A stretch of DNA of 64,000 nt from a virus: the IMG/VR virus record IMGVR_UViG_3300037067_022550. One strand, written 5' to 3'. Position 1 is the first letter of the stretch; each line of letters begins with the position of its first letter. The translations under genes and the position numbers were made by a program. Positions 9,197-59,299 of this stretch are shown piece after piece. A model generated the notes under the pieces. The model made no database searches, was not told the DNA's origin, and worked only from the letters and a program-made list of their open reading frames with translations.

Positions 9197-11914
9197 CTAT
9201 AATCTCCAATAAACAAAACCGTTTTTAATGCACTCTTCTTTATCATAGAGACCTTTTATATCTATAATAATAGGAGGATGAGAAGACATTTCTTTGAGTT
9301 TGTTTAATGGATATTTTTCTTTAAACATGTTGTGCTTAACAGCCACAATAATAGCTTCATAGGGCTTATTTAAACACAAATCATTATAATTTATAAGTGG
9401 GATATTATATTCTTTATATACTCTATTTATATCTGCTTTGGGATCATAAACAAATGGATTGGTATGATATTTTTTTAATTCTTTGTAAATATCCCCAATT
9501 CTTGAATTTCTTATATCACTTATATTTTCCTTAAAAGTAATGCCCATAATAAGAATATTAGCACCATTAATTTTTTTACCTAATTCTATTAATTTTTTAA
9601 TAGTATTTTCTGCTATATATTTTCCCATATTATCATTTGTTCTTCTACCAGACAAAATTACTTCTGGATGATAGCCCAATATTTCTGCTTTATAAGTAAG
9701 ATAATATGGATCAACGCCGATACAATTGTGAGAAATTATTCCAAAATCCGTAACAATAGTTTTTGTTTTTTCAACTTCTATGGAAAAAACTTCTTGCTCA
9801 TTATTTTCAATAAAAACTTCTTTTACTGGAACTAACCATAATCCATCTGAAAATTCATATTTAATAAGTGGATTTCTTCTGCAATTATTTATATGATTAC
9901 CTATCTTTAAATAATTTTTATCACCCAAAAGTGGAGATATTTTAGATAATATTTTCTGACCACCCAGCAAAGTCAAATGATTTACTTTCGGATTAACTTT
10001 ATTAATATAGGTAGAATAGTGTATTCCATTACTAAGCAATATATAGCAGATTTGGTTAAACATAACTTTACTAGAAGAACTAAAAGTCATTACACAACAA
10101 TTAAAATTATCTCTATTATCTTGCTTTAAACTACCGTCACCTCTAAAAATTCCTGACAAAATAGATAAACATAACTTTTTGTTGTATAAAATGAGAGATG
10201 GAATATTTTTTTCATAACAATTACTTCCACATTTAAAAACTTCTTTAATTAAAAATCCCAATATATTAGAAGAAATTTTAACCTGAATGCAATGGTCTTT
10301 CTTATTATGCCAAATTGAATAAGATATTCCTAATTTTTTAGCAATAGATATTACATCATCAATATATTGCCGTTCGTTTTCATTAAAAGTAAATCTAGTT
10401 CTTATAGAGTTATCTTTTGAAATACATCCCTCTGACAAATAATATCCTATAAATCTGGAAAAATATTCATCAATTTCAATAATATTAGAAATTTTATTAA
10501 AAGACGGGCCTTTGCCTGTAACTAAATAAATATTATCTCTAGAAACTGGCATACTTTTGTTTTTTTCTAGTTCTATAAAAACTTTAAGCGGAAGATAATC
10601 CCATTTAAAATAATTGTCTGGTTTTATTGTTTTTGATTTTTTTAATCCAAATATTTTTTTATAATCTATCCACTTCCCACTTTTTAATTTAACTCTTGTT
10701 TTTGAAATGAGACTATCGGGAATAACATTAATTAAATCAATGTTTGTTGATGTTTGTTCTTGTGGTAAATCCTCATTATAAAATAAGGGTATTTTATCGC
10801 CGACAGCAATATTTTTAGCATGTTTAACTATTAACTTTTCGTTTTCAAAAACAAGTAAGGGATGTTTGTCAGTTACAGATATTTTATGGTTTTTTTCGGT
10901 TGTTACAGTAACTATTTTGTCATAGGTAGCTTTTGAGCATCCAGAAATTTTACTAAATAATAATTTTCGCGAATCAACATCAAAAGAAAGAATTTCATCA
11001 GAATTTTCTTTTTCAAATCCATTGACATATTCTTTAATGGTTTGAGTTTTAATGATATTATTTTTTCTAATAGTAATGAGATGATTTTTAGTAAAGCAAT
11101 GGCCTCCTACAAGCCCAGGTTCATATTTGTGGAAATTCCATTTTGTTCCAGCAGCAGCTAAAACATCTTGGGTGTCTATGTTCATCTTGTGAAAAATCAA
11201 AGCTAATTCATTTACAAGAGCAATGTTTAAATCCCTTTGTACGTTTTCTATAACTTTAGCAGCTTCTGCTGTCCTGATATTTGGAGCCATATGTATTTTT
11301 GCTTCAATTACACTACCATATAAATCATAAATAAACTTTGCTGTTTCTTCATCATCTCCAGAAACTATTTTATTTGTATTTTTAACACAATGAACTTTAT
11401 CGCCAGGATTTATTCTTTCTGGAGAATATCCTACATGAAAATCTTTTTTCCAAACATAGTTTTCTTTAGAAAGTAAGGGGACACATATTTCTTCTGTTAC
11501 GCCAGGATAGACGGTAGATTCATAGATCACCAATATTTTCTTTTTTGTTTCAGAATAATTAAAAGTAGAAATAGTTTTTGTAGCAGATATAATTGGGGTT
11601 AAATCTGGTTGTTTATCTTCATGAATGGGAGTAGGAACAGTAACAATAAAGACATCCATATTTCTTAACATAGCAATGTCTTCTAATGAGATATATTTAA
11701 TGTATGATGCTTGTAATTCTTGTATGGAAACATCTTCATTTCTATCATAATTATTTTTTAATTCTTCAATTCTTTCCTTATAATTATCAAAACCATAAAC
11801 ATTATATTTTTTAGAAAACAAAATTGCTAATGGCAACCCTACATACCCAAGTCCCACGATGCAAATATTTTTTGTTCCAGATCCAATCAAAAAATCAGAA
11901 ATATTATAATTCAT
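9197..11914 (-). CDS. UDP-N-acetyl-D-mannosamine / UDP-sugar 6-dehydrogenase (WecC/TviB-like) interrupted by a 458-aa intein
   Basis: N-terminal Rossmann motif GLGYVGLP. N-extein ends ...LVGGH and C-extein begins CIGVDPYYL, restoring the GGHCIGVDPYY active site. Exteins are 272 + 175 aa. Confidence 0.7.
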   Translation of the reverse strand: MNYNISDFLIGSGTKNICIVGLGYVGLPLAILFSKKYNVYGFDNYKERIEELKNNYDRNEDVSIQELQASYIKYISLEDIAMLRNMDVFIVTVPTPIHEDKQPDLTPIISATKTISTFNYSETKKKILVIYESTVYPGVTEEICVPLLSKENYVWKKDFHVGYSPERINPGDKVHCVKNTNKIVSGDDEETAKFIYDLYGSVIEAKIHMAPNIRTAEAAKVIENVQRDLNIALVNELALIFHKMNIDTQDVLAAAGTKWNFHKYEPGLVGGHCFTKNHLITIRKNNIIKTQTIKEYVNGFEKENSDEILSFDVDSRKLLFSKISGCSKATYDKIVTVTTEKNHKISVTDKHPLLVFENEKLIVKHAKNIAVGDKIPLFYNEDLPQEQTSTNIDLINVIPDSLISKTRVKLKSGKWIDYKKIFGLKKSKTIKPDNYFKWDYLPLKVFIELEKNKSMPVSRDNIYLVTGKGPSFNKISNIIEIDEYFSRFIGYYLSEGCISKDNSIRTRFTFNENERQYIDDVISIAKKLGISYSIWHNKKDHCIQVKISSNILGFLIKEVFKCGSNCYEKNIPSLILYNKKLCLSILSGIFRGDGSLKQDNRDNFNCCVMTFSSSSKVMFNQICYILLSNGIHYSTYINKVNPKVNHLTLLGGQKILSKISPLLGDKNYLKIGNHINNCRRNPLIKYEFSDGLWLVPVKEVFIENNEQEVFSIEVEKTKTIVTDFGIISHNCIGVDPYYLTYKAEILGYHPEVILSGRRTNDNMGKYIAENTIKKLIELGKKINGANILIMGITFKENISDIRNSRIGDIYKELKKYHTNPFVYDPKADINRVYKEYNIPLINYNDLCLNKPYEAIIVAVKHNMFKEKYPLNKLKEMSSHPPIIIDIKGLYDKEECIKNGFVYWRL
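9725..11098 (-). mobile_element. intein with LAGLIDADG homing endonuclease domain, inserted at the catalytic Cys of the dehydrogenase
   Basis: Begins with Cys (CFTKNH), ends HN, followed by the +1 Cys. LAGLIDADG-like blocks FIGYYLSEGCISKD and LSGIFRGDGSLKQ. Boundaries computed from codon positions. Confidence 0.7.
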
Positions 11915-21643: not shown

Positions 21644-22396
21644 ATGCCAATTACATACTATTATGATTCCAAATTTAAAAAACCTTATCCAAACTTTGAA
21701 AAGATACAGAAAAGAAAAGTAATTCTTTCTGCAAGCAATGGGGCTGATTTAACAACTTCCGGGCTAAACTATACATTATGGCATCCTTCTGAAAACTGGG
21801 TAGTACATGAAGTTCTAATGCATTTTGGAGCTGCAACAGCTAGGTCTTACTCAGTTAACAAAGTAATCGGTAGAGGCATTATTACTAATTTAAATGACCT
21901 TTTATGGATAAGATGCGATGGATATACTGCACAAAGTATTTATTTGGATCAGGGCTTTTATACTGGAACAACATTGGCTACTCAAATTAAAACAAAATTA
22001 GATGCCGATGCCAATTTTATTGCTGCAGGTGTTGCTCCATTCACAGTATCCTATAGTGCTACAACAGGTAAATTTACTATTGTAACTACTGCTGGAAATA
22101 TTCAATTTATTAATACTAATATAGCTGTAGGAGTTAATAGAAATAGCACTGCTGGAGCTGTTGTTGGATTTGCAGCTGATAGTTCTTTTGCTACTTCAAT
22201 TACTAGTGACACTGCTGTTTTGGGGTTAGGAGATTTAATCCCAATAGATGCAGAAGCAACTAGTACAGATATAAATACAATTGTTAATGTAGATTCTCTT
22301 TCTCCAATTTTTGATGTGGACGGAGCTTTAAATTTAACAATTGGAACAGTTGCTACCACAGTAGATTATAAAATATCTTATGAAGAAGTTTTTTAA
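21644..22396 (+). CDS. hypothetical protein, possibly structural
   Basis: SD GAGGAG upstream. 250 aa, Thr/Ala/Gly-rich and beta-rich in character. Divergent from the fibre gene. Confidence 0.4.
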   Translation: MPITYYYDSKFKKPYPNFEKIQKRKVILSASNGADLTTSGLNYTLWHPSENWVVHEVLMHFGAATARSYSVNKVIGRGIITNLNDLLWIRCDGYTAQSIYLDQGFYTGTTLATQIKTKLDADANFIAAGVAPFTVSYSATTGKFTIVTTAGNIQFINTNIAVGVNRNSTAGAVVGFAADSSFATSITSDTAVLGLGDLIPIDAEATSTDINTIVNVDSLSPIFDVDGALNLTIGTVATTVDYKISYEEVF

Positions 22397-24557: not shown

Positions 24558-25667
24558 ATGTCACTTCAAACTAGAGCAACAGCATTACAAGGAGAATATG
24601 TTAGGCTTTATTGTAGATTTATTCAGGATGGCATTTTAACAGATCCTTTTGCTGCACCAGAAGTTTATATAACAGATAACGGCTATTATCCGGATTCTGT
24701 TTCTTCATCTGAATCTTCTTCCTATAGCTACTCACTATCAGTTTCATCAGAAAGTTCATCTGAATCTGGAATTTATTATGGACCATTTACTGCACAAAAA
24801 GAACATACAGGACTTTGGTATATAGATTGGTTAGTTCCTGATAGTTTGCCTATTGGTAAATATTTTGATGTATGGAAATTTAAATGGTCAATAGATACAA
24901 GTATTAATAAAACAGAAATATTTGAATTAGTAGTAAATAAAATGGATCAACTTGTTAATTCTGTTAGCCCTGCAGAAACTTTCAATGTTGGGGATAATGT
25001 TTACGGTATGATGAACGATCTATCAAATAATTTCATCTATGAAGCCATGCATATACCTATATATTGGGAACAAGGTTATAAATCTAATGATAAAAAAACA
25101 ATTAACTTTGCCTTTGGTAATTGGAATCACGATCCCAGACCTATAATTAGAGTAAATCAAAAAATTCGTCCAGACGGTTGGCAACCCAATTATAATGGCA
25201 ATATTTATTTTAACCAAAGTTTAGATCCGGAAGATATGGTCTATGCTCAATATAATTTTAAATATTTTAGTAAAGAAGAAATAATGGATTTTCTTAATAT
25301 GGGTTTATATGCCATGAATGCTACACCTCCAGCTAGCCTAACTTATAATAGTATTAATAGTTCTCCTTTTGCTTGGAGATTTGGGATTATTTTATATGCT
25401 GCTATTAAAGCTATTCAAAGATTGGTGTTCGGATTAAATTTCCAAGAAAGAGCTTTAATATTTGCAGAAAAACCAGAAAATGTACAAGCTGCCATTAATA
25501 ACTTTAAGGCACTTTATGCAGATTATAATACTTTGTGGATTGAAGTTAAAAAAGAAGTTAAGACCTTGAAGTTGCCTAGTATCGGACAAATTTCTGTTCC
25601 TGAATATACGTTACCAGGTGGCAGAAGTCGTTGGTTTCGTTATCTTTACAAAAATGGATCTGGTTAA
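24558..25667 (+). CDS. hypothetical protein with Ser-rich low-complexity segment
   Basis: 369 aa. Low-complexity stretch SVSSSESSSYSYSLSVSSESSSESG. Confidence 0.45.
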   Translation: MSLQTRATALQGEYVRLYCRFIQDGILTDPFAAPEVYITDNGYYPDSVSSSESSSYSYSLSVSSESSSESGIYYGPFTAQKEHTGLWYIDWLVPDSLPIGKYFDVWKFKWSIDTSINKTEIFELVVNKMDQLVNSVSPAETFNVGDNVYGMMNDLSNNFIYEAMHIPIYWEQGYKSNDKKTINFAFGNWNHDPRPIIRVNQKIRPDGWQPNYNGNIYFNQSLDPEDMVYAQYNFKYFSKEEIMDFLNMGLYAMNATPPASLTYNSINSSPFAWRFGIILYAAIKAIQRLVFGLNFQERALIFAEKPENVQAAINNFKALYADYNTLWIEVKKEVKTLKLPSIGQISVPEYTLPGGRSRWFRYLYKNGSG

Positions 25668-26794
25668 GATAGTTGATGTTTCTCTTTATATCTTTTTAAT
25701 ATTAATTCTTTGTTTAAATTTAATATTGCATTTTTGTGTTTTAAATACTCTTGTTCATCAAACTTGTATAAAAGTTCTTTTATCGCAAATTTTTTAGTTA
25801 TTTTTAATAATTCTGATGAAGATTTAAAATCAAATATTATCCTAGGTTTTAGTTTTAACGCAGGACATCTAAATCTTACTTCTGCTGTTAATCCAAATTT
25901 TTCATATAATATTGTCTTTAATTTTTTATTTTCTTCTTCGGTAAAAGATTCAGAACACAATTGACATCTTGGAAGAGCATTGTTTAATTTTATTCCGTTT
26001 CTATATCCCCAATCAGTTATCCCATCATCCATAAACCAAATTGCTAAAACAAACTCATTTATATAATCTTCCATATTTTCTGGAACTACCTTTTTTCCGT
26101 TTTTATAAAAAGATTCTTTTAATTCTAAATTTAAACTATGAACTTTACAAACAAGTTGAAAAGTATAAACCCTAGTTCCAGATCTCTTATCATCTCCTAC
26201 GTAATAAGTAAAAGGGTTATTATTCCAAATTTCCTTTAAAAAACTAGCTTTCCACTCTAAATACTCAACTTGTTTTTCAGAATGTTTTTCTCTAAAATTT
26301 CCCCATTTATCTATACAACCATCCCCCAGAAGTGATCCAATAATAACATCCTTGGCTTCTTGAGACAATGGTTTTTCATTAGCAAGTCTTCTTATAAAAG
26401 TAGCTCCTTTTCTCTTAATGCCATAGAAGTCTCTTAAATATGTAATGTGTTCTCTTGGTATATTATATTTTTTTGATATATCATCTAAACTATTTATGGT
26501 TTGGTTATATTCTAATTCAAAAATTTCCTTATTAATAATTGTTGATTGATTTTTTAAAAAGTAATTATAAAAACTAATTAAGTGTTTAGATGTACCTTTT
26601 TTTATTTCTTTTGAAAATCCTCCATTTAATATTTTTTCTTTATATTCTTCAAAAGATATAAATTCTTTTTTTCTATGAGATGGTATTTTTAATCCATGTT
26701 CTTCCTGTTGAATGTGGCATTTATCAATACATTCCACCAATTCTTTTCTTGCCATTTCGTTGCTCACTTTATAAATATTGCTTGTTTTTAACAT
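25664..26794 (-). CDS. free-standing LAGLIDADG homing endonuclease
   Basis: Two LAGLIDADG motifs: IIGSLLGDGCID and LAIWFMDDGITD. Confidence 0.6.
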   Translation of the reverse strand: MLKTSNIYKVSNEMARKELVECIDKCHIQQEEHGLKIPSHRKKEFISFEEYKEKILNGGFSKEIKKGTSKHLISFYNYFLKNQSTIINKEIFELEYNQTINSLDDISKKYNIPREHITYLRDFYGIKRKGATFIRRLANEKPLSQEAKDVIIGSLLGDGCIDKWGNFREKHSEKQVEYLEWKASFLKEIWNNNPFTYYVGDDKRSGTRVYTFQLVCKVHSLNLELKESFYKNGKKVVPENMEDYINEFVLAIWFMDDGITDWGYRNGIKLNNALPRCQLCSESFTEEENKKLKTILYEKFGLTAEVRFRCPALKLKPRIIFDFKSSSELLKITKKFAIKELLYKFDEQEYLKHKNAILNLNKELILKRYKEKHQLS

Positions 26795-26930
26795 TATTTA
26801 TTCTCCTTAATTGTATATCTTATTATATATTACCAGAATTATTATACAACATCCTACAAAAATATACAATTTATTTTACCATATTTTTTATCCAATAGGA
26901 TTCTCCCCTTTAATCCAAGAAACATATTTC

Positions 26931-27815
26931 ATGAACAACATTACAAAAATATTAACACTTATATTTTTATTAATTTCATCAATATTATTTGCAGATTCAT
27001 TTTCTGCTTATATTGAAAATGATGTATATGAAAATAGTGATGGTTTCTATACTCATGGAACACAATTAGAATATACTCATAATATAGATTCAACCAATGT
27101 TTTAGGAATTAAGGGATCACAAGAAATATTTACTCCATCTGACAAAAATAATCCCCTTCCTGAATATGGTGACAGACCTTATGCAGGATGGTTACATGGG
27201 GATGTTTATTTGGAAAGATATTATGATAATCATTGGATAGATCATTATGAATTAAGTCTGGGAGTAGTTGGACCATATTCAGGTGGAGAATTAGCTCAAA
27301 AAACAGTTCATAAATGGTTAGGCAACAAACAACCTCAAGGATGGCAATATCAACTATTAAATGAACCTACTATTCAAATAAATTATGGTAAAATATACTC
27401 TGTTTTTTTAAATGATTATGTTGAATTACGTCCAGAAATGAGATTAAATGCTGGTAATGTTTTAGATGATTTTGAACTTATTCAAACTGTAAGATTTGGT
27501 TATAATATTCCTAAAGATTTTAGTCCTAGAATTTCTATTAAAGGATTATCAAAGAAATATTATTGTTATGGATTTTTAGGAGTAGCTGGGGCTGCAATTG
27601 CTAGGAATTTACTTTTAGATGGGAATACATTTAGGGAAGATGAAGATGTTGTGACTGTAGAACATAGACCAATTGTTTGTGATGGAATAATGGGTATATG
27701 CTTTGGAATAAATTTTATAGAAATAACTGTTACCCATATTGAACAAACAGATGAATTTTATGGTCAGAAGAGAGATGAAAGATATGACAGCTTAAAGGTA
27801 AGGTACATTTGGTAA
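26931..27815 (+). CDS. outer-membrane protein, LpxR/DUF2219-like (putative lipid A deacylase family)
   Basis: Signal peptide MNNITKILTLIFLLISSILFA. Mature N-terminus has YIENDV, and GDRPYAGWLHGD recalls a conserved LpxR-family motif. Start moved from 26811 to the internal ATG at 26931. Confidence 0.35.
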   Translation: MNNITKILTLIFLLISSILFADSFSAYIENDVYENSDGFYTHGTQLEYTHNIDSTNVLGIKGSQEIFTPSDKNNPLPEYGDRPYAGWLHGDVYLERYYDNHWIDHYELSLGVVGPYSGGELAQKTVHKWLGNKQPQGWQYQLLNEPTIQINYGKIYSVFLNDYVELRPEMRLNAGNVLDDFELIQTVRFGYNIPKDFSPRISIKGLSKKYYCYGFLGVAGAAIARNLLLDGNTFREDEDVVTVEHRPIVCDGIMGICFGINFIEITVTHIEQTDEFYGQKRDERYDSLKVRYIW

Positions 27816-27820
27816 ATTAA

Positions 27821-28729
27821 TTATTGATTCCACCAAGAATTTTGTATGGCTTCTTCTTTTTGTTCTTTTTGGCGTTCTTGAACCTCTTTATTAATCTTAT
27901 CTTGTTCTTGTCTTTTTTTAAATTCTTCTCTATCAAATCTAGCTTCTATTTCATATCCCAATTGATAATAATCTTTTAAAAGGGGATAACTTTTTAAAAA
28001 TTTGAGTCTAGCTTGATTGGGAGAATAAGCATCTTTTATAACATTTTCTAATTGTTGAGGAGTTTGTTCTATACCATATTTAATAACAACTATTTTATAG
28101 GGATAGGGCGTTTCTACTTTTTTTTCTGCTATTTTTTTTGATATTTTGTTCCCCTTATTATTTTTAGATAATAGGTGGTGAGATAATTTTACATCTTTGT
28201 GCTTTAAATCATCCATTTTTTTATAAAATAAAGAAATAATAAAATCATCTTTTGATAATATTTTTAGTAATCTTTTTATTCTTTCTACTAATACTTTATT
28301 GGCGGAATTTGTAAACTCATTTTTAAATTCTACAAAACGTTTCCCTAAAAAGTTAATAATAGATTTTTTCACAACATTTATGACTTCTTGGTTTTGTTTT
28401 ATTTCTGGAGGAGCTTCTAAATAAGACAATGCTACTAATGATGGTTCTGAAAGTTCTTTTGGATTAAATAAATTGTGTTCCCATAACCATTTTATTTCTT
28501 TTGGACAATTCCAGTTATCAACAGCTTTCCAAGAGATTTGGTTGCTTTCCCCTTTTCTTAAAACTTCAGCCAGTATTTCAGGGGGGCAGTTAATATTGCC
28601 GGCTGCATACATAGAAATGACATCTTCTTTTCCCCTTCTCAGAACTTCTGCTAAAATTTCAGGAGGACAGTTAGGATCTTGAACCATTTCTGATGTTATT
28701 TTTGATTGTGATGTCTTATACCAGTTCAT
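27821..28729 (-). CDS. MNWYK-leader protein with NPNCPPEIL (LRV/HEAT-like) repeats
   Basis: Starts MNWYKTSQ. Repeats DPNCPPEILAEVLRRGKEDVIS, NINCPPEILAEVLRKGESNQIS and NWNCPKEI. Paralogue of 58454..59299. Confidence 0.55.
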   Translation of the reverse strand: MNWYKTSQSKITSEMVQDPNCPPEILAEVLRRGKEDVISMYAAGNINCPPEILAEVLRKGESNQISWKAVDNWNCPKEIKWLWEHNLFNPKELSEPSLVALSYLEAPPEIKQNQEVINVVKKSIINFLGKRFVEFKNEFTNSANKVLVERIKRLLKILSKDDFIISLFYKKMDDLKHKDVKLSHHLLSKNNKGNKISKKIAEKKVETPYPYKIVVIKYGIEQTPQQLENVIKDAYSPNQARLKFLKSYPLLKDYYQLGYEIEARFDREEFKKRQEQDKINKEVQERQKEQKEEAIQNSWWNQ

Positions 28730-29322
28730 TCATATTTATCCTTAAAAATAGTATCAAATACATCTTTAATTCCGAATTTTTCTTTAATCATTTTATTGAT
28801 ATCTGGATAGCTTCTTATCTTATCTGATTCATTATTATAAACGGCCAATGCTTCTTTTATCATATCCATTCGCAAATAATCAATAAATGTTTTAACACAA
28901 GAAACTCCTCTACCGTTATTTTTTATTTTTTGAATATTGTCTAGTTTATCAATCCAATCTGTTTCTACTAATTTGTCGCTTATCCCTAAATATACCTGAA
29001 TAGACTTATTACCTTTTGCTTTTGCCATGCCTATTCTATGTTTTCCGTCTAAAACATCATAGGAATTATTATCTATTTTTAAAACAATCGGTGGAATATT
29101 TGTTTGTTTGTTTTTAAATTTAGGATCTGCTACCCAGTCAAAAAGATCTAATGATAATTCTGTTAGTTCCCATTGTTTAGACGCATAAGCTATTTCTTTG
29201 GCACTATTAAGATTTATTTCTCCTGACCAATCTTTTAATGAATTATTTAAAATAAAATCAACCATTTCATCGCCTGTTAGAGATTTTGGATAATTTTTTT
29301 GTGATATTTTATACCAGTTCAT
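28726..29322 (-). CDS. MNWYK-leader protein with ParB/Srx-like nuclease domain
   Basis: Starts MNWYKISQ. PPIVLKIDNNSYDVLDGKHRIGMAKAKG matches the ParB/sulfiredoxin DGxHR motif. 4-nt overlap with the downstream gene. Confidence 0.5.
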   Translation of the reverse strand: MNWYKISQKNYPKSLTGDEMVDFILNNSLKDWSGEINLNSAKEIAYASKQWELTELSLDLFDWVADPKFKNKQTNIPPIVLKIDNNSYDVLDGKHRIGMAKAKGNKSIQVYLGISDKLVETDWIDKLDNIQKIKNNGRGVSCVKTFIDYLRMDMIKEALAVYNNESDKIRSYPDINKMIKEKFGIKDVFDTIFKDKYE

Positions 29323-29627
29323 TGCAATACAAGTCCCATATAGTAAGCAGTTCTTTCACATTCTTTTAATATTAAATCTTCGTCACTGCTTCCTAAAAAT
29401 TCAAAAAATTGGAAATTAGGAAGTTGATGTTTTTCTTGTTTAGAACCGCTTTGCCAAAAAGCTTTTAATTTTTCATTCAAATACACATTGCAAAAATAAA
29501 CAAATTTTTGCAACTCATTTTGGTCTTCACTTTCAAAACAAATTCCCCAGGTATGAACTCCGTCTGGATAATGAATATATAGTTTGTCTTTTAATTCTGC
29601 TTTTTTATACCAGTTGGTTTTAAACAT
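29319..29627 (-). CDS. NWYK-leader hypothetical protein
   Basis: Starts MFKTNWYKK. 102 aa. 4-nt overlap with the neighbouring gene. Confidence 0.45.
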   Translation of the reverse strand: MFKTNWYKKAELKDKLYIHYPDGVHTWGICFESEDQNELQKFVYFCNVYLNEKLKAFWQSGSKQEKHQLPNFQFFEFLGSSDEDLILKECERTAYYMGLVLQ

Positions 29628-29629
29628 AT

Positions 29630-30577
29630 TTATTTACCAATAATTTTTTGTTTTAAATTTCTAACAAAATCTTCTTTATTTTCATATCTGTCTATCATTG
29701 TTTTAAGAACATCTTCTGGAACTCCATGAACATTTCTGCCTTTTAGAAAATCGAAATTCCATTTTCCGGTAGAATCTTTTAAATCTTTATGCCAATGAGG
29801 TTCTTCTATTCTTATTTTATAACCGTGACCGATAGCCATTCTAACGTAAGGTTCTGCTTCTATAGCTTGTGTATTAGTATTGGCTATAATTATGGGAGTT
29901 ATACCATTTTCCATTGCTTCAAGACATCTTTCTTGATTCCAATTATGGGCTTCTATTTGTTTTTCTTTATCAAAAACATATTTATCTTGTTGCATAAAAA
30001 ATTCATCTGATTCTAAAACAATACCTGTATTTCCAGCTAATTGTTTGGCTAATGTACTTTTTCCGCCGCCAGGAGGGCATCTCACCAATATCATTAGTTT
30101 TTCTTGTTGGGATATTTTGTGCCAATTGCAACTATGGCTTAAGTTTAATTCTGGTTGATATTTAATTTCTTCTTTTCTTTTCTTTTTTTGTTCAATTAAA
30201 TAATTACACATTCCAATAACTCTTCTTAATGTTTCTTTATCAAACAAAGCCATATGACATAAATTTCTTGGAACATTAAGTTTTCTGGCCAACCAATTAT
30301 AATATTTTTGTTGAGCTTCTTTAGGATTGGATTCGTTTTCTATCATTTCTTTTATTTTATTATGAGCTGCTTTCCTCAATGCTATTGTTTCTAAATCTCC
30401 AGGAACTCCTTGTGGCTTACCATCTTTGAATGCTCCATGAGTAACTTTACAATCTGGATAATTTTGACAACGATAGTAAAATCTGTCATTCCATTTATGA
30501 AGTTTAAGTTTTGAGCCGCATTCAGGGCAATCTAAATCGTGTTCCTTTACTTCTTGTGCAATTTTATACCAGTTCAT
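29630..30577 (-). CDS. MNWYK-leader protein with topoisomerase-type Zn ribbon plus P-loop kinase domain (polynucleotide-kinase-like)
   Basis: Starts MNWYKIAQ. Zn ribbon CPECGSKLKL...CQNYPDCK. Walker A CPPGGGKST. C-terminal HGVPEDVLKTMIDRY resembles PNK-family kinases. Confidence 0.55.
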   Translation of the reverse strand: MNWYKIAQEVKEHDLDCPECGSKLKLHKWNDRFYYRCQNYPDCKVTHGAFKDGKPQGVPGDLETIALRKAAHNKIKEMIENESNPKEAQQKYYNWLARKLNVPRNLCHMALFDKETLRRVIGMCNYLIEQKKKRKEEIKYQPELNLSHSCNWHKISQQEKLMILVRCPPGGGKSTLAKQLAGNTGIVLESDEFFMQQDKYVFDKEKQIEAHNWNQERCLEAMENGITPIIIANTNTQAIEAEPYVRMAIGHGYKIRIEEPHWHKDLKDSTGKWNFDFLKGRNVHGVPEDVLKTMIDRYENKEDFVRNLKQKIIGK

Positions 30578-30837
30578 AATTCCCCCGATAAAGTTCCCAA
30601 AAGGTATTTTGCCCCAATTTCTTTTGCTTTTGAGGCATAATCAAAAGTTGTTGGCATATGACCTCTATATTGACCTTCAAACCAAAAATGAGGAACATAA
30701 TAAACATAAAAATCTTTAAGTGGGTCATTTTTTTTGACACCTTCCTTATAATGTTTTTTTACAGTTACCTTCCACCCCTTGGGCAATTTTACTTTTTCTG
30801 CTTCTGGAAATTCTTGAGACGTTTTATACCAGTTCAT
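30574..30837 (-). CDS. MNWYK-leader small hypothetical protein
   Basis: The ORF track starts at MKRTIM (30852). An AAGGA SD sits 7 nt before the MNWYKTSQ ATG at 30837, so that start is preferred. Confidence 0.45.
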   Translation of the reverse strand: MNWYKTSQEFPEAEKVKLPKGWKVTVKKHYKEGVKKNDPLKDFYVYYVPHFWFEGQYRGHMPTTFDYASKAKEIGAKYLLGTLSGEL

Positions 30838-31048
30838 GATTGTCCTTTTCAAAAATCAATTTTTCTTCACCTATATATAGTTCTTTTTTGAATTTTCTAA
30901 AAATATGTTCTAATATTTCAGCACAACCACTTTTATTAATAGTTGTTATAGGGATGCAATTTCTACAGGTGCTGATAACTTTGCCAACATGTTCTCTACC
31001 AACATTTATTATAATTTTATTTTCGCGTCTTATGTATTTAACGAACAC
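30824..31048 (-). CDS. hypothetical small protein
   Basis: 74-aa ORF with CRNC...C Cys residues. Confidence 0.3.
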   Translation of the reverse strand: MFVKYIRRENKIIINVGREHVGKVISTCRNCIPITTINKSGCAEILEHIFRKFKKELYIGEEKLIFEKDNHELV

Positions 31049-31052
31049 TTTT

Positions 31053-31274
31053 TTAACTCCCTATTAATTCTATTTTCTCGTCACCTAGTTTCAGGCCATC
31101 AAAATTATTAAAAACTGTTATGGGTATTATTATTTTCCCATCCTGTTTAATATTCCCCAAAAAAACATTTATTTCACATCCATTTTTATATCCACATATC
31201 TTTTCCCCTGTATACCTACAACCAAAAGATATAGTTATATCTAGTCCTTTCTTAATTAATGTGAACTTATTCAT
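31053..31274 (-). CDS. hypothetical small protein, first gene of the minus-strand operon
   Basis: 73-aa ORF with CRYTGEKICGYKNGC. Confidence 0.3.
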   Translation of the reverse strand: MNKFTLIKKGLDITISFGCRYTGEKICGYKNGCEINVFLGNIKQDGKIIIPITVFNNFDGLKLGDEKIELIGS

Positions 31275-31411
31275 ATTAATATTTATTCTTATTTTTTAAA
31301 TAAAAAACCTATAAACACAATTTTAAACAAACAATTTTATTTTTTGTAGGATTAGGCAAAAATGTATGGGAATTAATAATTATATTAAAAATCAATATAA
31401 AAGGATAATAT

Positions 31412-41768: not shown

Positions 41769-42113
41769 CTATTTTCTAAAAATATATTGGGCTACATAAT
41801 CCCCAGCTAGCAATGGCTTAAAATATTGAACTTTCCAACCGGCCTCTTTATAAAGAGCTATAATGTCTAAATAAAAATATTTAAAAAGAAATGGTTCGGA
41901 CATTTTGTTTTTTGCAAAATAATATTTAGTTAATTTTTTAACTTCGTTTTCATAAACAACAGCTTTATTGTTACGCCAGCTATTTCTAATCAATTTGTTA
42001 AACACTTGAATAACTTTATTGGGTATATCGTCTTTTATTTCGGATGGTTTAATTGGTTTAACTTTATAGTTTTTTTTCATTTTTTTATCTCCTTTGGCTG
42101 TTTTCTGACGCAA
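41769..42113 (-). CDS. small paralogue family protein, copy 4
   Basis: Shares KPIKPSEI..DIP..VI..FN.LI...W and C-terminal GW.V.Y...FIFRK with the next three genes. Confidence 0.45.
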   Translation of the reverse strand: MRQKTAKGDKKMKKNYKVKPIKPSEIKDDIPNKVIQVFNKLIRNSWRNNKAVVYENEVKKLTKYYFAKNKMSEPFLFKYFYLDIIALYKEAGWKVQYFKPLLAGDYVAQYIFRK

Positions 42114-42165
42114 TTCTATTTCTTTTTTAAATCATAATTAGATTTGAAAATTATTCTTTGTTTTC

Positions 42166-42507
42166 TTATGGATGTTTAAAAACAAATCCTTTTATATTAT
42201 ATTCAACTATCCATCCTGCTTGGCTATAAACACTTTTAACACTCAAAATACAATTGAGACTTAGCTCGCTTAATCCCGAAATAACATATTTACAGTTTAT
42301 TGGGAGAATTACAAGTTCAAATTCTTTTAAAATAATTTGAACGGCTTCTTTTGGAGAAATGATGGATTTGTTGCCATCCCAGTTTCTTTTAATTGCTTCA
42401 TTAAATATTTTTATCATTCTAGGTGGAAGTGTAAAATCTCCGTCGCTCTCACAGGGATTAACCAATTGAATCGGCTCAATTGGTTTAATTGGTTTAATTT
42501 TATTCAT
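42166..42507 (-). CDS. small paralogue family protein, copy 3
   Basis: Has KPIKPIEPI...IFNEAIKRNWDGN...AGWIVEY. Confidence 0.45.
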   Translation of the reverse strand: MNKIKPIKPIEPIQLVNPCESDGDFTLPPRMIKIFNEAIKRNWDGNKSIISPKEAVQIILKEFELVILPINCKYVISGLSELSLNCILSVKSVYSQAGWIVEYNIKGFVFKHP

Positions 42508-42513
42508 GAAATT

Positions 42514-42816
42514 CTATTTTCTAAAAATGAATTTGGCTCTAGTATCGCTAGGTGAAGATTCAATATATGTAACGCTCCATCCATTTTTTTGATAAACATC
42601 TATAATTTGTAAATATAAAAATAAACGAAGTGGTGTGTATGTATTATTTTTTGAAGAATAATAACTATCTAATTTTTTAACTTCATCTTCATAAACCTCA
42701 GCCTCATGGTTTTTCCAGTTTTTTATAATCAATTCGTTAACCGCCCGAATAACTTCATCAGGTAAAATATCATCATCTATTTCGGATGGCTTAATCGGTT
42801 GAATTGTATTTTTCAT
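42514..42816 (-). CDS. small paralogue family protein, copy 2
   Basis: Has IQPIKPSEIDDDILPDEVIRAVNELIIKNW...GWSVTY...FIFRK. Confidence 0.45.
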   Translation of the reverse strand: MKNTIQPIKPSEIDDDILPDEVIRAVNELIIKNWKNHEAEVYEDEVKKLDSYYSSKNNTYTPLRLFLYLQIIDVYQKNGWSVTYIESSPSDTRAKFIFRK

Positions 42817-42820
42817 TTTT

Positions 42821-43195
42821 TTAAGACTTAATTTGGTTTATTGCCCCATCTTTTTTAAAAATAAACATAGCAACAAAATCATCACCAATACCAGGTTTTT
42901 CATAGGTTACATCCCATCCTTCTTTCCCATAAATACTTTCTATATTCAAGTAACCACGATCAAAAATTGAGGATCGCGTTAAGTTTCCTTTCGTTTCTTC
43001 TGAAATATCTAAAATCAATTCTATAACATCATTTTGTGTAAATTCAGATTCATTGCCGTCCCATCGTCTTTTAATTAATTCGTTAAATGCCACAATAACT
43101 TCATCTGGAATTTGCAAACCTACTTCATTAGGGCTAATAGGTTTGTTTTTATTATTAATTACTTGGGCAGCAAGTGTTGAAATATATGTTTTCAT
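42821..43195 (-). CDS. small paralogue family protein, copy 1
   Basis: Has NKPISPNEVGLQIPDEVIVAFNELIKRRWDGN...GWDVTY...FIFKK. Confidence 0.45.
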   Translation of the reverse strand: MKTYISTLAAQVINNKNKPISPNEVGLQIPDEVIVAFNELIKRRWDGNESEFTQNDVIELILDISEETKGNLTRSSIFDRGYLNIESIYGKEGWDVTYEKPGIGDDFVAMFIFKKDGAINQIKS

Positions 43196-58001: not shown

Positions 58002-58457
58002 ATGGGCAAAAAAAGAAAAATAAATAAAGAAACTAAAACATATAAAGAAAAAATAATTCGCCGTTTAAAAAAGAAATTATTAGCTCTTTGGTCTATGAAA
58101 GTAAAAGAACTCAATGGCAATTGTTGTGAAGTTGACGGATGTTCAACTGGAAATGCTCTTAATAGTCACCACGTAGAAAACTTTGTTGTTAATCCAGAGT
58201 TAAGATACGATCTTAATAATGGGGTTTGTTTGTGTCAAAGTCATCATAAATTTTTAGCCAAATCTGCTCACAAGTCTTTTATATTCATGTATGACTTAAT
58301 GTTGAAAAAACATCCAAAAAGTTTAGAATATCTAATTAATTTTAAGCCAACGGGAGAAGAACTAACTGTTGAAACATTAGAAAAAAAAATAAAGGAAATG
58401 GAATCTATTAAGTTTGTAAAAGAAAATCAAGATGTTAATAAAACAGGTAATGTGTGA
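58002..58457 (+). CDS. HNH endonuclease-like protein
   Basis: CEVDGCSTGNALNSHHVEN...NGVCLCQSHH gives an HNH-type motif. SD ATAGGAGAAAAACC upstream. Confidence 0.5.
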   Translation: MGKKRKINKETKTYKEKIIRRLKKKLLALWSMKVKELNGNCCEVDGCSTGNALNSHHVENFVVNPELRYDLNNGVCLCQSHHKFLAKSAHKSFIFMYDLMLKKHPKSLEYLINFKPTGEELTVETLEKKIKEMESIKFVKENQDVNKTGNV

Positions 58458-59299
58458 AAATAATTAAAATAGCTACAGAAATAACATTAGAAATGGTTAA
58501 AGATCCCAACTGTCCCCCAGAAATATTGACAGAAGTATTATTAAAAAAAGAAAATTATGATGATGAAGATTATGTTTCTCACTATGCGGCTATTAATCCT
58601 AATTGTCCTCCTGAAACATTGGCAAAAGTTTTAAGGAGAGAAAAAAATGATACTGTTTCTCAATGTGCTGTTGGTAATCCAAATTGCCCACCAGAAATAT
58701 TAACTGAAATATTAAAAAGAGGTAAAAATGATGATGTTTCTCTATATACTGCTACAAGTCCAAACTGTCCTCCAGAAACGTTAACAGAAGTATTAAAAAG
58801 AGGAAAAAATGATTTTGTTTCTAGGTATGCAGCCGGAAACCGCAATTGCCCTCCAGAAACATTAATAGAATTATTAAGGATAGGTAAAGATAATGAAGTT
58901 TCCCAACATGCAGCTCGTAATCCAAATTGCCCACCAGAAATGCTAGCTGAAGTATTAAAAAGATTGAAAAACGATAATGTTTCTGCATTTGCTTCTAAAA
59001 ATCCAAATTGCCCACCAGAATATGCTTGGTTGTGGAAAAACAAGATGCATAATCCAACCGACTGGTTTTTAAACTATTTGGATGCTTCTCCAACGGTAAA
59101 AAACGATCCTTATATAACTAAACTAGTTAAAACAGATTTAGTAAAAACATTAAATGATTTTTTTAATGGTAAAACATTACTAATGGGGAAAACATTACTA
59201 ATAGGTAAAGACAAAGATAAAATAAAAAAGTTAGTGGATTACTTTGGTAGCAATGACTTTGTAATTTCACTTTACAAAAATAAAATATTTAATAATTAA
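58454..59299 (+). CDS. NPNCPPExL (LRV/HEAT-like) repeat protein
   Basis: Six ~28-aa repeats NPNCPPE[IT]L[AT]EVLKRGKND.VS..AA. Ends with a WLW segment like 27821..28729. GTG start overlapping the upstream stop as GTGA. Confidence 0.5.
   Translation: MKIIKIATEITLEMVKDPNCPPEILTEVLLKKENYDDEDYVSHYAAINPNCPPETLAKVLRREKNDTVSQCAVGNPNCPPEILTEILKRGKNDDVSLYTATSPNCPPETLTEVLKRGKNDFVSRYAAGNRNCPPETLIELLRIGKDNEVSQHAARNPNCPPEMLAEVLKRLKNDNVSAFASKNPNCPPEYAWLWKNKMHNPTDWFLNYLDASPTVKNDPYITKLVKTDLVKTLNDFFNGKTLLMGKTLLIGKDKDKIKKLVDYFGSNDFVISLYKNKIFNN
58490..59030 (+). repeat. in-frame tandem repeats, about 6 copies of an 81-84-nt unit inside 58454..59299
   Basis: The nucleotide unit aatccaaattgcccaccagaaat... recurs. 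It produces the spurious antisense ORF 58660..59043. Confidence 0.5.

Follow-up and report, generated by a model that had tools for sequence, protein, structure and literature searches.

In bacteriophage T4, a set of unrelated, fast-evolving accessory proteins (IPI, IPII and IPIII, and also Alt, gp67 and gp68) share at their extreme N terminus a peptide of about 10 residues, the capsid-targeting sequence (CTS) MKTYQEFIAE. Here we describe an element of similar design, the peptide MNWYKx(A/S)Q, hereafter the tag, which stands at or near the start of five consecutive genes in a 64,000-nt stretch of viral DNA (the window) from the IMG/VR record IMGVR_UViG_3300037067_022550 and recurs on many other viral contigs. 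As with the CTS, its bearers are accessory proteins of large phages, enzymes that modify the host or counter its defences are among the cargo, and the genes are grouped in variable clusters. Unlike the CTS, the tag is carried by at least 54 cargo families, which is far more, and is not followed by an L/I-x-E protease site. No similarity between the two peptides could be established. The CTS is nevertheless the nearest analogue of the tag, which falls outside the CTS family by its lack of a cleavage motif.

A second comparison is with the polyvalent proteins. The domain list given for these capsid-packaged proteins (Iyer et al. 2017, PMC5512222) overlaps with the tagged cargo in kinase, GNAT, Pol-beta nucleotidyltransferase, ParB/Srx and lysozyme/SLT domains, the ParB-like one being matched only weakly here, and the likeness extends to the predicted role as early-phase effectors delivered with the DNA. 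However, polyvalent proteins combine 2–15 domains per polypeptide (PMC5512222), whereas the tag is found mostly on separate small genes, each with a tag of its own, fusions being the minority; the linkage to MuF or zincin-like peptidase domains was not seen with the tag. The cargo-loading peptides of encapsulins, also short terminal peptides joined by a flexible linker to diverse cargo, are analogous in design only. They are usually C-terminal and have a different consensus. They bind the lumen of an HK97-fold shell, and the viruses that carry the tag have a small, very conserved HK97-type capsid protein; yet this protein matches Phage_capsid and gp27 of phage G (PDB 6WKK), that is, a tailed-phage head module and not the encapsulin family. 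The ClpX-recognition motif of the lambda O type resembles the tag in its N-terminal position, in the order of a polar, an aromatic or hydrophobic, a hydrophobic and a basic residue, and in the need for an unstructured start, but it is loose and occurs also on host proteins, while the tag is sharply defined and virus-only. Finally, in giant phages of the phiKZ and SPN3US type, ejection and inner-body proteins are defined by S/A/G-x-E cleavage motifs. The tag differs from these in being a shared N-terminal peptide and in belonging to a different phage lineage. Passages in PMC10052503 and PMC5694885 describe many non-structural proteins of those phages as packaged and processed by the prohead protease.

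The tag and its island of five genes

The island consists of five minus-strand genes, numbered 1 to 5 by ascending coordinate (Table 1). A preliminary description had listed them as translationally coupled genes with a common N-terminal peptide, and this stands: an independent public gene call for this metagenomic contig (ENA ERZ27247363, k141_727378) gives the same products of 87, 315, 102, 198 and 302 aa, the genes overlap by 4 nt (ATGA) at three junctions and are 2 nt apart at the fourth, four products begin with MNWYK[IT][SA]Q and the third with MFKTNWYKKAE, and beyond the tag the products are mutually unrelated at the BLAST level. The 14-nt string reported on the plus strand was also recovered, its third copy beginning at 30564 and not at 30566. 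Within the 64 kb there are exactly five copies of the 11-mer AACTGGTATAA, each at the start of an island gene, and with one mismatch allowed there are eight matches against 2.6 expected, a count reached in none of 100 shuffles. A six-frame scan of the window for NW[YH]K found no further tagged starts and one internal copy, in gene 4, which the preliminary description had missed. In gene 3 an ACC appears to have replaced the original ATG, the new start lying three codons upstream (compare MNILKTNWYKKAS in locus L010 with ...TKMNWYKKAS in L141).

The domain content was largely as described. The Zn-ribbon plus P-loop kinase call for gene 4 is borne out by Pfam (DUF3268/Zn-ribbon at aa 17–124 and AAA_33 at aa 162–258), and the NPNCPPEIL repeats of gene 1 are evident in its sequence with no Pfam match. 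The ParB/Srx-like fold proposed for gene 2 was matched weakly: a DGKHR motif is present, and about 45 top Foldseek hits of an AlphaFold2 model, built on the family alignment of gene 2, are nearly all of the ParB/Noc/KorB/Srx/SbnI type, at E values of only 0.015–0.6. The product of gene 5 has no match in Pfam or PHROG, and the island has no nucleotide similarity to known phages.

The tag is much broader than the window. IMG/VR was scanned with ATGAAYTGGTAYAARNNNNNNCAR, a pattern that encodes MNWYKxxQ and leaves positions 6 and 7 unconstrained, which gave 104 matches in 89 stretches. Of these, 64 are plausible starts of an open reading frame (ORF), defined by at least 45 aa downstream and at most 24 in-frame codons upstream. 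Although position 7 was left free, 62 of the 64 starts have Ala (42) or Ser (20) there, against only 4 of 27 in the internal control of non-ORF matches with a residue at that position. In this larger set, conservation reaches seven of the eight residues. Synonymous codons are in use throughout (AAC 35 and AAT 26, TAT 50 and TAC 11, AAA 50 and AAG 11, with eight Ala/Ser codons plus AGT at the Ala/Ser positions), and the loci span 24–50% GC with variation at synonymous sites, from which it follows that selection acts on the protein. The periodicity of conservation points to coding constraint and not to an RNA or DNA motif. No nucleotide identity flanks the tag codons on either side, no common 7-mer, promoter or RNA motif was found upstream of tagged genes, and positions 9–16 hold no conserved residue among 62 tagged proteins. 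Together with the five from the window, the 64 proteins of the scan (69 in all) form 54 BLAST clusters. We therefore regard MNWYKx(A/S)Q as a portable recognition tag acting at the level of the protein, with a probability of roughly 85%.

Neighbouring genes carry variants (MSWYK, MTWYK, MQWYK, MNWYR, MNWYQ, NWYK started by GTG or TTG, and the prefixed forms MNILKTNWYK and MKTKKNWYK). The orthologous family of gene 2, with 18 homologs that are all metagenomic, begins variously with MNWYKxxQ, MDWYKTSQ, MIKNWYGLAK, MKIYRIAQ, MKIYKISQ and MRIYKIAK, and two of its members have low-complexity insertions between tag and domain; an identical gene 2 product is also encoded on a 264-kb contig. Related loci totalling 1.37 Mb contain 42 copies of a second flavour, M[KR][IVLT][IVLY][KR]x[AS], while 120 kb of phage G and 252 kb of mixed viral loci contain none. 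On contig L005, three tagged genes have Trp at position 6 (two begin with MNWYKWAQ and one with MSWYKWAQ), apparently a sub-flavour peculiar to this contig. Another repeated N terminus, unrelated to the NWYK tag, was seen at L020 7849-10489 (−), where at least five tandem paralogs on one 461-kb phage contig start with MKIR(K/Q/N)GFVSNSSSSSF.

In the AlphaFold2 model of gene 2, residues 1–10 have a predicted local distance difference test score of about 52, with a four-residue helix at 3–6, coil up to residue 13 and a confident domain from 14. Residues 9–20 of tagged proteins have a mean hydropathy of −0.75, compared with −0.11 in untagged neighbours (p = 5e-6). The tag thus appears as an N-terminal appendage modelled with low confidence, and a polar, flexible linker comes after it. 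A Sec, Tat or lipoprotein signal peptide was rejected, because a hydrophobic or transmembrane helix is present in only 2 of 64 tagged proteins and residues 9–20 are unusually hydrophilic; in both exceptions the transmembrane helix is followed by an SLT domain, an architecture that fits an ejection protein and equally a membrane-anchored lysin. Internal copies of the tag are found at domain junctions (window gene 4, L037, L040, L041, L050, L061, L090, P0020, P0027 and P0029). Three of them have His in place of Tyr (NWHK in the window and L040, KWHK in P0020), a change seen in none of about 85 N-terminal copies, and this decay fits a constraint that relaxes once the peptide is no longer N-terminal.

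Tagged proteins have a median length of 160 aa, and most have no Pfam match. Besides glucose-6-phosphate dehydrogenase and an aldo-keto reductase, the domains that were matched are helix-turn-helix (three), GNAT (two), AAA_33 kinase, a cyclic-phosphate-processing receiver domain, the Thoeris inhibitor Tad6, PGDYG, DUF5661, methyltransferase and SLT, as well as a PolyA-polymerase-head nucleotidyltransferase within a tagged protein of 1235 aa. A possible resemblance to ART enzymes of a family with a conserved [YF][RH]G found no support from Pfam or from a profile search of PDB sequences. The phage also holds a set of RNA-repair genes, namely RtcB and RNA ligase (L131 676-5107, 10 kb upstream of the start of the window) and the tagged polynucleotide-kinase-like P-loop kinase (window 29804-30094); in L041, an RNA-ligase-like gene follows a tagged island. 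This set suggests a defence against host anticodon nucleases.

The cargo modules are shuffled and fused at the tag. The kinase half of gene 4 exists elsewhere as a stand-alone tagged gene (MNWYKKAQNKKTLYIMRG in L010, and also MNWYKKTV, MNWYKNIL and MAQGWYKSAQ) and is fused to other N-terminal modules via an internal KKWHKKAQ, its Zn-ribbon half has different C-terminal partners, and the C-terminal 80 aa of gene 2 form the separate tagged gene P0010. The DNA of the tag contains TGA in the +1 frame and, if Tyr is encoded by TAT, TAA in the +2 frame. Of 71 tagged starts, 26 are tightly coupled to the gene before: 16 are ATGA overlaps, seven are overlaps of 14 nt in which the upstream protein ends in ...ELV, and four have a same-frame stop within 15 nt. 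The 74-aa ORF upstream of gene 5 overlaps it by 14 nt in this way and ends in ...NHELV*. Two modules become fused when a single base is gained or lost at such a junction, and this accounts for the internal relics. In sum, the tag exists, is portable and dependent on its N-terminal position, is restricted to one clade and sits on cassette-shuffled accessory modules.

Distribution and genomic setting

The tag is essentially confined to viruses. In 596 Gb of bacterial and archaeal genomes, scanned with position 7 restricted to KCN, there were 28 matches against about 35 calculated by chance for uniform base composition. Only five of these truly start an ORF. The three contigs that carry them are short and low in GC and were binned as Halanaerobium, Flavobacteriales and Patescibacteria (L104, 19 kb, from a Halanaerobium metagenome-assembled genome; L109; and L113, 10 kb, from a Patescibacteria one; 25–34% GC), and these five genes are probably phage DNA binned with its host. 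Similarly, the tagged kinase P0034 is listed at NCBI as 'MAG: AAA family ATPase [Candidatus Asgardarchaeia archaeon]' on a contig of 547,943 bp, and IMGVR_UViG_3300033145_003233, also of 547,943 bp, has a capsid gene like that of phage G; mis-binning of a megaphage probably accounts for the 'Asgard' record.

In several loci the gene for the major head protein adjoins a tag island, and this protein is 54.7% identical to gp27 of Bacillus phage G. Within the clade the capsid protein is 54–100% identical. An alignment search of IMG/VR with it gave 123 relatives, and the capsid-centred results below cover the best 80 of these 123, among which at least 14 contigs, with capsid proteins 54–100% identical to gp27, were already tag-positive in the independent DNA scan. 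Taking the tag loci in turn, 35 of 50, the window included, lie on a contig with a phage-G-like capsid gene or share non-tag genes with such loci. On this evidence, the tag marks a single clade of environmental huge phages related to phage G. Homologs of the kinase in Vibrio, Aeromonas and Nitrincola phages lack the tag, and their alignment begins only at about residue 11. No tag was found near a homolog in two huge-phage records (LR756511 and LR756508), in a Variovorax phage or in a Vibrio phage, and homologs of DUF5661 in cyanophages and Flavobacterium phages gave nothing useful on the tag in cultured phages. To the best of our knowledge, the tag has not been described before: literal and conceptual searches of open-access papers, among them comparative genomics of jumbo phages and polyvalent proteins and a multi-omics preprint on phage G, returned no description, and an earlier one elsewhere is possible.

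Tagged genes form tandem islands, with seven in a row in L010 and 13 of about 16 consecutive genes in L078; in L142 and L157, eight co-oriented genes of either flavour come immediately after the capsid gene. Tags are present in 16 of the 80 capsid-centred loci, and 38 of the 41 tags there lie 0–8 kb downstream of the start of the capsid gene, 25 of the 38 on the same strand. The window island is syntenic with such a region: homologs of the three marker genes to its left (Table 1) lie 6–11 kb downstream of the capsid gene in phage-G-like contigs and 7–11 kb downstream of it in 3300038679_000357, where they are followed by genes starting MSWMKKYSQ, MDWLDRYAQ and MKIWKLAL.

Several other features of the head region were observed. 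Nearly every environmental relative (L133–L212) has, about 6–7.5 kb ahead of its capsid gene, a gene for a protein of 1800–2400 aa whose N-terminal 200 aa or so match a head-maturation protease, while the annotated head protease gene of phage G is short. This giant protease fusion was rejected as a discriminator of tag loci since it occurs with or without nearby tags, and no tag motif was found inside it. Capsid genes of the clade have a strong AAGGAGA ribosome-binding site. In L133–L177 this site is preceded by a conserved hairpin between the decoration and capsid genes, about 30–70 nt upstream of the capsid start (locus positions ~9930–9970), formed by TTTATAGG...CCTATAAA or, in others, by TTTTAGGA...TACCTAAAAA; it may be a transcript-processing or stability element. 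LAGLIDADG homing endonuclease genes recur beside the capsid gene or tag islands, as in the window, L010 (3303-4292), L141, L146, L152 and L174.

How the tag may be read

The preliminary description had taken the shared peptide for a sorting signal comparable with the T4 CTS. As a general, portable N-terminal signal this is well supported by the roughly 54 families, the protein-level selection, the position dependence, the polar linker and the restriction to one clade, and the finding is real and non-random; its specific form, in which the products would be virion-packaged, protease-cleaved and injected anti-defence effectors as in T4, is a possible one that the evidence allows. We envisage that a conserved, clade-specific and probably phage-encoded partner would read the tag as a recognition handle, such a partner being likelier than a universal host factor because the tag is essentially absent from cellular proteins and belongs to one clade only. 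The use that we rank first, as a tentative proposal, is loading of the tagged proteins into the procapsid and their delivery with the DNA at the next infection, which would make the tag a functional equivalent of the CTS and the cargo a non-covalent counterpart of the polyvalent injected effectors. It is ranked first because the cargo matches polyvalent domains, islands adjoin the head module, the CTS offers a precedent and giant capsids hold many products; according to PMC10052503, the capsids of giant phages contain more than 50 gene products, of which many are ejected. A fuller version, more doubtful than loading as such, is that a phage-encoded receptor (possibly the giant protease fusion beside the capsid gene, or the conserved capsid lumen) reads both the eight-residue label and the second flavour M-K-I-I-K-x-A, and so loads dozens of exchangeable, separately encoded effectors for co-injection.

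Several observations weigh against loading into the capsid. There is no capsid gene within 27 kb of the window island, nor anywhere in the window, and proximity to the capsid gene is in any case weak evidence because the region downstream of it is generically variable. Phage G, the only cultured relative, does not have the canonical tag: its IMG/VR copy gave no pattern match, and none was seen in the 120 kb read. Full-length glucose-6-phosphate dehydrogenase (L005 11652-12974, 50% GC, MNWYKWAQ), aldo-keto reductase and proteins of more than 1000 aa carry the tag and would be odd capsid cargo. No protease cleavage motif like the L/I-x-E of T4 follows the tag in the 62 tagged proteins. Finally, a strong Shine-Dalgarno sequence is found in 17% of tagged genes compared with 40% of other genes in the same loci (Fisher p = 4e-7), and this depletion argues against abundant synthesis.

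Some of these points suit other uses of a recognition handle. The tag might be an N-terminal degron by which an AAA+ unfoldase or protease, either of the host or a phage ClpXP-like one, keeps accessory or early proteins short-lived. We consider this unlikely, though it accounts for much: the strict N-terminal dependence with decay of internal copies, an unstructured polar linker suited to engagement by an unfoldase, and the tagging of any type of cargo, from metabolic enzymes to a membrane protein whose tag lies on the cytoplasmic side. The lambda-O-type N-motif for ClpX reads 'polar-phi-phi-basic-phi', and, against this generally known motif, N-W-Y-K-I and K-I-Y-K-I would fit. On closer comparison with N-motif-1, N-W-Y-K matches, but the fifth motif position is hydrophobic in only about one-third of the tags, position 6 often being Lys, Gln, Arg or Glu. 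Genes for ClpP and ClpX are present in phage G (bioRxiv 10.1101/2024.12.16.628780), which would favour a degron, and yet this phage lacks the canonical tag. Of at least 556 ClpX matches in IMG/VR, the best 80 include no tag contig, but ClpX is too common there for this to tell either way. In addition, one would expect a signal for a universal host protease to extend beyond a single phage clade.

Less probable again is a tag that serves mainly in translation, its first codons or nascent peptide aiding initiation or elongation independent of Shine-Dalgarno sequences and its built-in stops (A-TGA, TA-TAA) coupling the genes. The absence of a Shine-Dalgarno sequence in 72% of tagged genes versus 50% of neighbours (p = 4e-6) and the tight coupling of more than a third of tagged starts are in line with this, as is the excess of AAC at codon 2 (42 observed versus 19 expected, z = 6.4), which is a nucleotide-level signal. 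On the other hand, TAT, which the TAA stop needs, is not over-used at the Tyr codon (z = 0.95), and stops do not require Trp, Ala/Ser or Gln. Conservation tracks the genetic code, with free third positions and exchanges between Trp and Ile and between Ala and Ser, and not an RNA motif; a shared upstream motif was not found, and the highly expressed capsid and decoration genes have a strong Shine-Dalgarno sequence and no tag. About as improbable is sorting to a destination other than the capsid, for instance a compartment made by the phage, the membrane or cell pole, or a complex of several effectors around a hub protein. The evidence for a recognition handle applies to it equally, and glucose-6-phosphate dehydrogenase and aldo-keto reductase would be more at home in a cytoplasmic assembly than in a capsid. 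However, no gene for a hub and no candidate compartment was identified. Hydrophobic or amphipathic segments of sufficient length to bind a membrane are absent, and a transmembrane helix is present in only the two proteins mentioned above.

The other suggestion of the preliminary description, a recombination hotspot at the conserved 5′ sequence, holds as a consequence, since modules are shuffled and fused at tag junctions; as the primary role, with the peptide a by-product, it is very unlikely, because fusions exactly at these junctions (gene 4, gene 2 versus P0010, P0020, P0027, P0029, L037, L040, L050, L061 and L090) and the identity of AACTGGTATAA in all five window copies, even though AAC makes up merely 20% of the Asn codons in the window, are outweighed by the facts that the codons alone are conserved, with no flanking nucleotide homology on either side, that between phages synonymous codons drift while the peptide is retained, that within one orthologous family the tag swaps to chemically similar residues, and that 14 nt is short for homologous exchange. 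A mobile regulatory cassette like PeSL of T4 was likewise rejected, as it would require conserved flanking nucleotides independent of frame, whereas here only the codons are conserved and synonymous sites drift.

Other features of the window and wider meaning

The window has 29% GC, contains no tRNA genes and encodes, besides the island, topoisomerase I, NAD-dependent ligase, dUTPase and radical-SAM proteins. Searches of the neighbouring genes against PHROG and Pfam found no additional structural genes, and scans of the island for sigma-70 promoters and terminators gave counts below the shuffle expectation.

Table 1. Coordinates of the tag island and of other features in the 64,000-nt window
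Feature	Position	Strand	Description
Gene 1	27821..28729	−	302 aa; MNWYKTSQ tag 28706-28729; NPNCPPEIL repeats, then 200-aa region
Gene 2	28726..29322	−	198 aa; MNWYKISQ tag 29299-29322; ParB/Srx-like module aa ~14-117 (weak match), then C-terminal module
Gene 3	29319..29627	−	102 aa; displaced tag MFKT-NWYKKAE (29595-29615)
Gene 4	29630..30577	−	315 aa; MNWYKIAQ tag 30554-30577; two fused modules
Internal relic tag in gene 4	~30107-30127	−	NWHKISQ, SCNWHKISQQEK; aa 151-157, between Pfam domain boundaries
Gene 5	30574..30837	−	87 aa; MNWYKTSQ, tag codons 30814-30837
Two untagged ORFs	30824..31274	−	74 and 73 aa; head of the island's leftward gene string
AT-rich divergent intergenic region	31275-31411		upstream of the two untagged ORFs
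Gene 1 paralog	58454..59299	+	GTG start; KIIKIATEITLEMVKDPNCPPEIL (KIIKIAT) at the homologous position; second motif flavour
Synteny marker	21644-22396		250 aa
Synteny marker	24558-25667		369 aa
Synteny marker, homing endonuclease	25664-26794	−	LAGLIDADG type
LpxR-like gene	26811-27815	+	lipid A 3-O-deacylase; converges on the end of the tag island
Dehydrogenase gene	9197-11914	−	UDP-glucose/GDP-mannose dehydrogenase; Intein_splicing and LAGLIDADG_3 (Pfam) between the dehydrogenase domains
Four tandem paralogs	41769-43195	−	100-124 aa; common K-P-I-K-P-S-E-I ... N-E-L-I-K/R-x-x-W core

Three of the remaining features in Table 1 are observations in their own right. The LpxR-like gene points to a Gram-negative host, unlike that of phage G. 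An intein that includes a LAGLIDADG endonuclease seems to interrupt the dehydrogenase gene, and the four small tandem paralogs share a core of their own.

If the tag is indeed an address label, a one-line sequence rule would pick out the accessory and effector arsenal of a clade of uncultured megaphages, most of whose genes are unannotated, and protein sorting in giant phages, whether to the particle, to a protease or into a complex, would become testable. The peptide and its receptor, if such a pair is real, would also be a tool for loading foreign cargo into giant capsids. A sharp, clade-wide and virus-only N-terminal motif on more than 50 families would represent a new regulatory principle for phage gene cassettes even if the tag acts as a degron or in translation.

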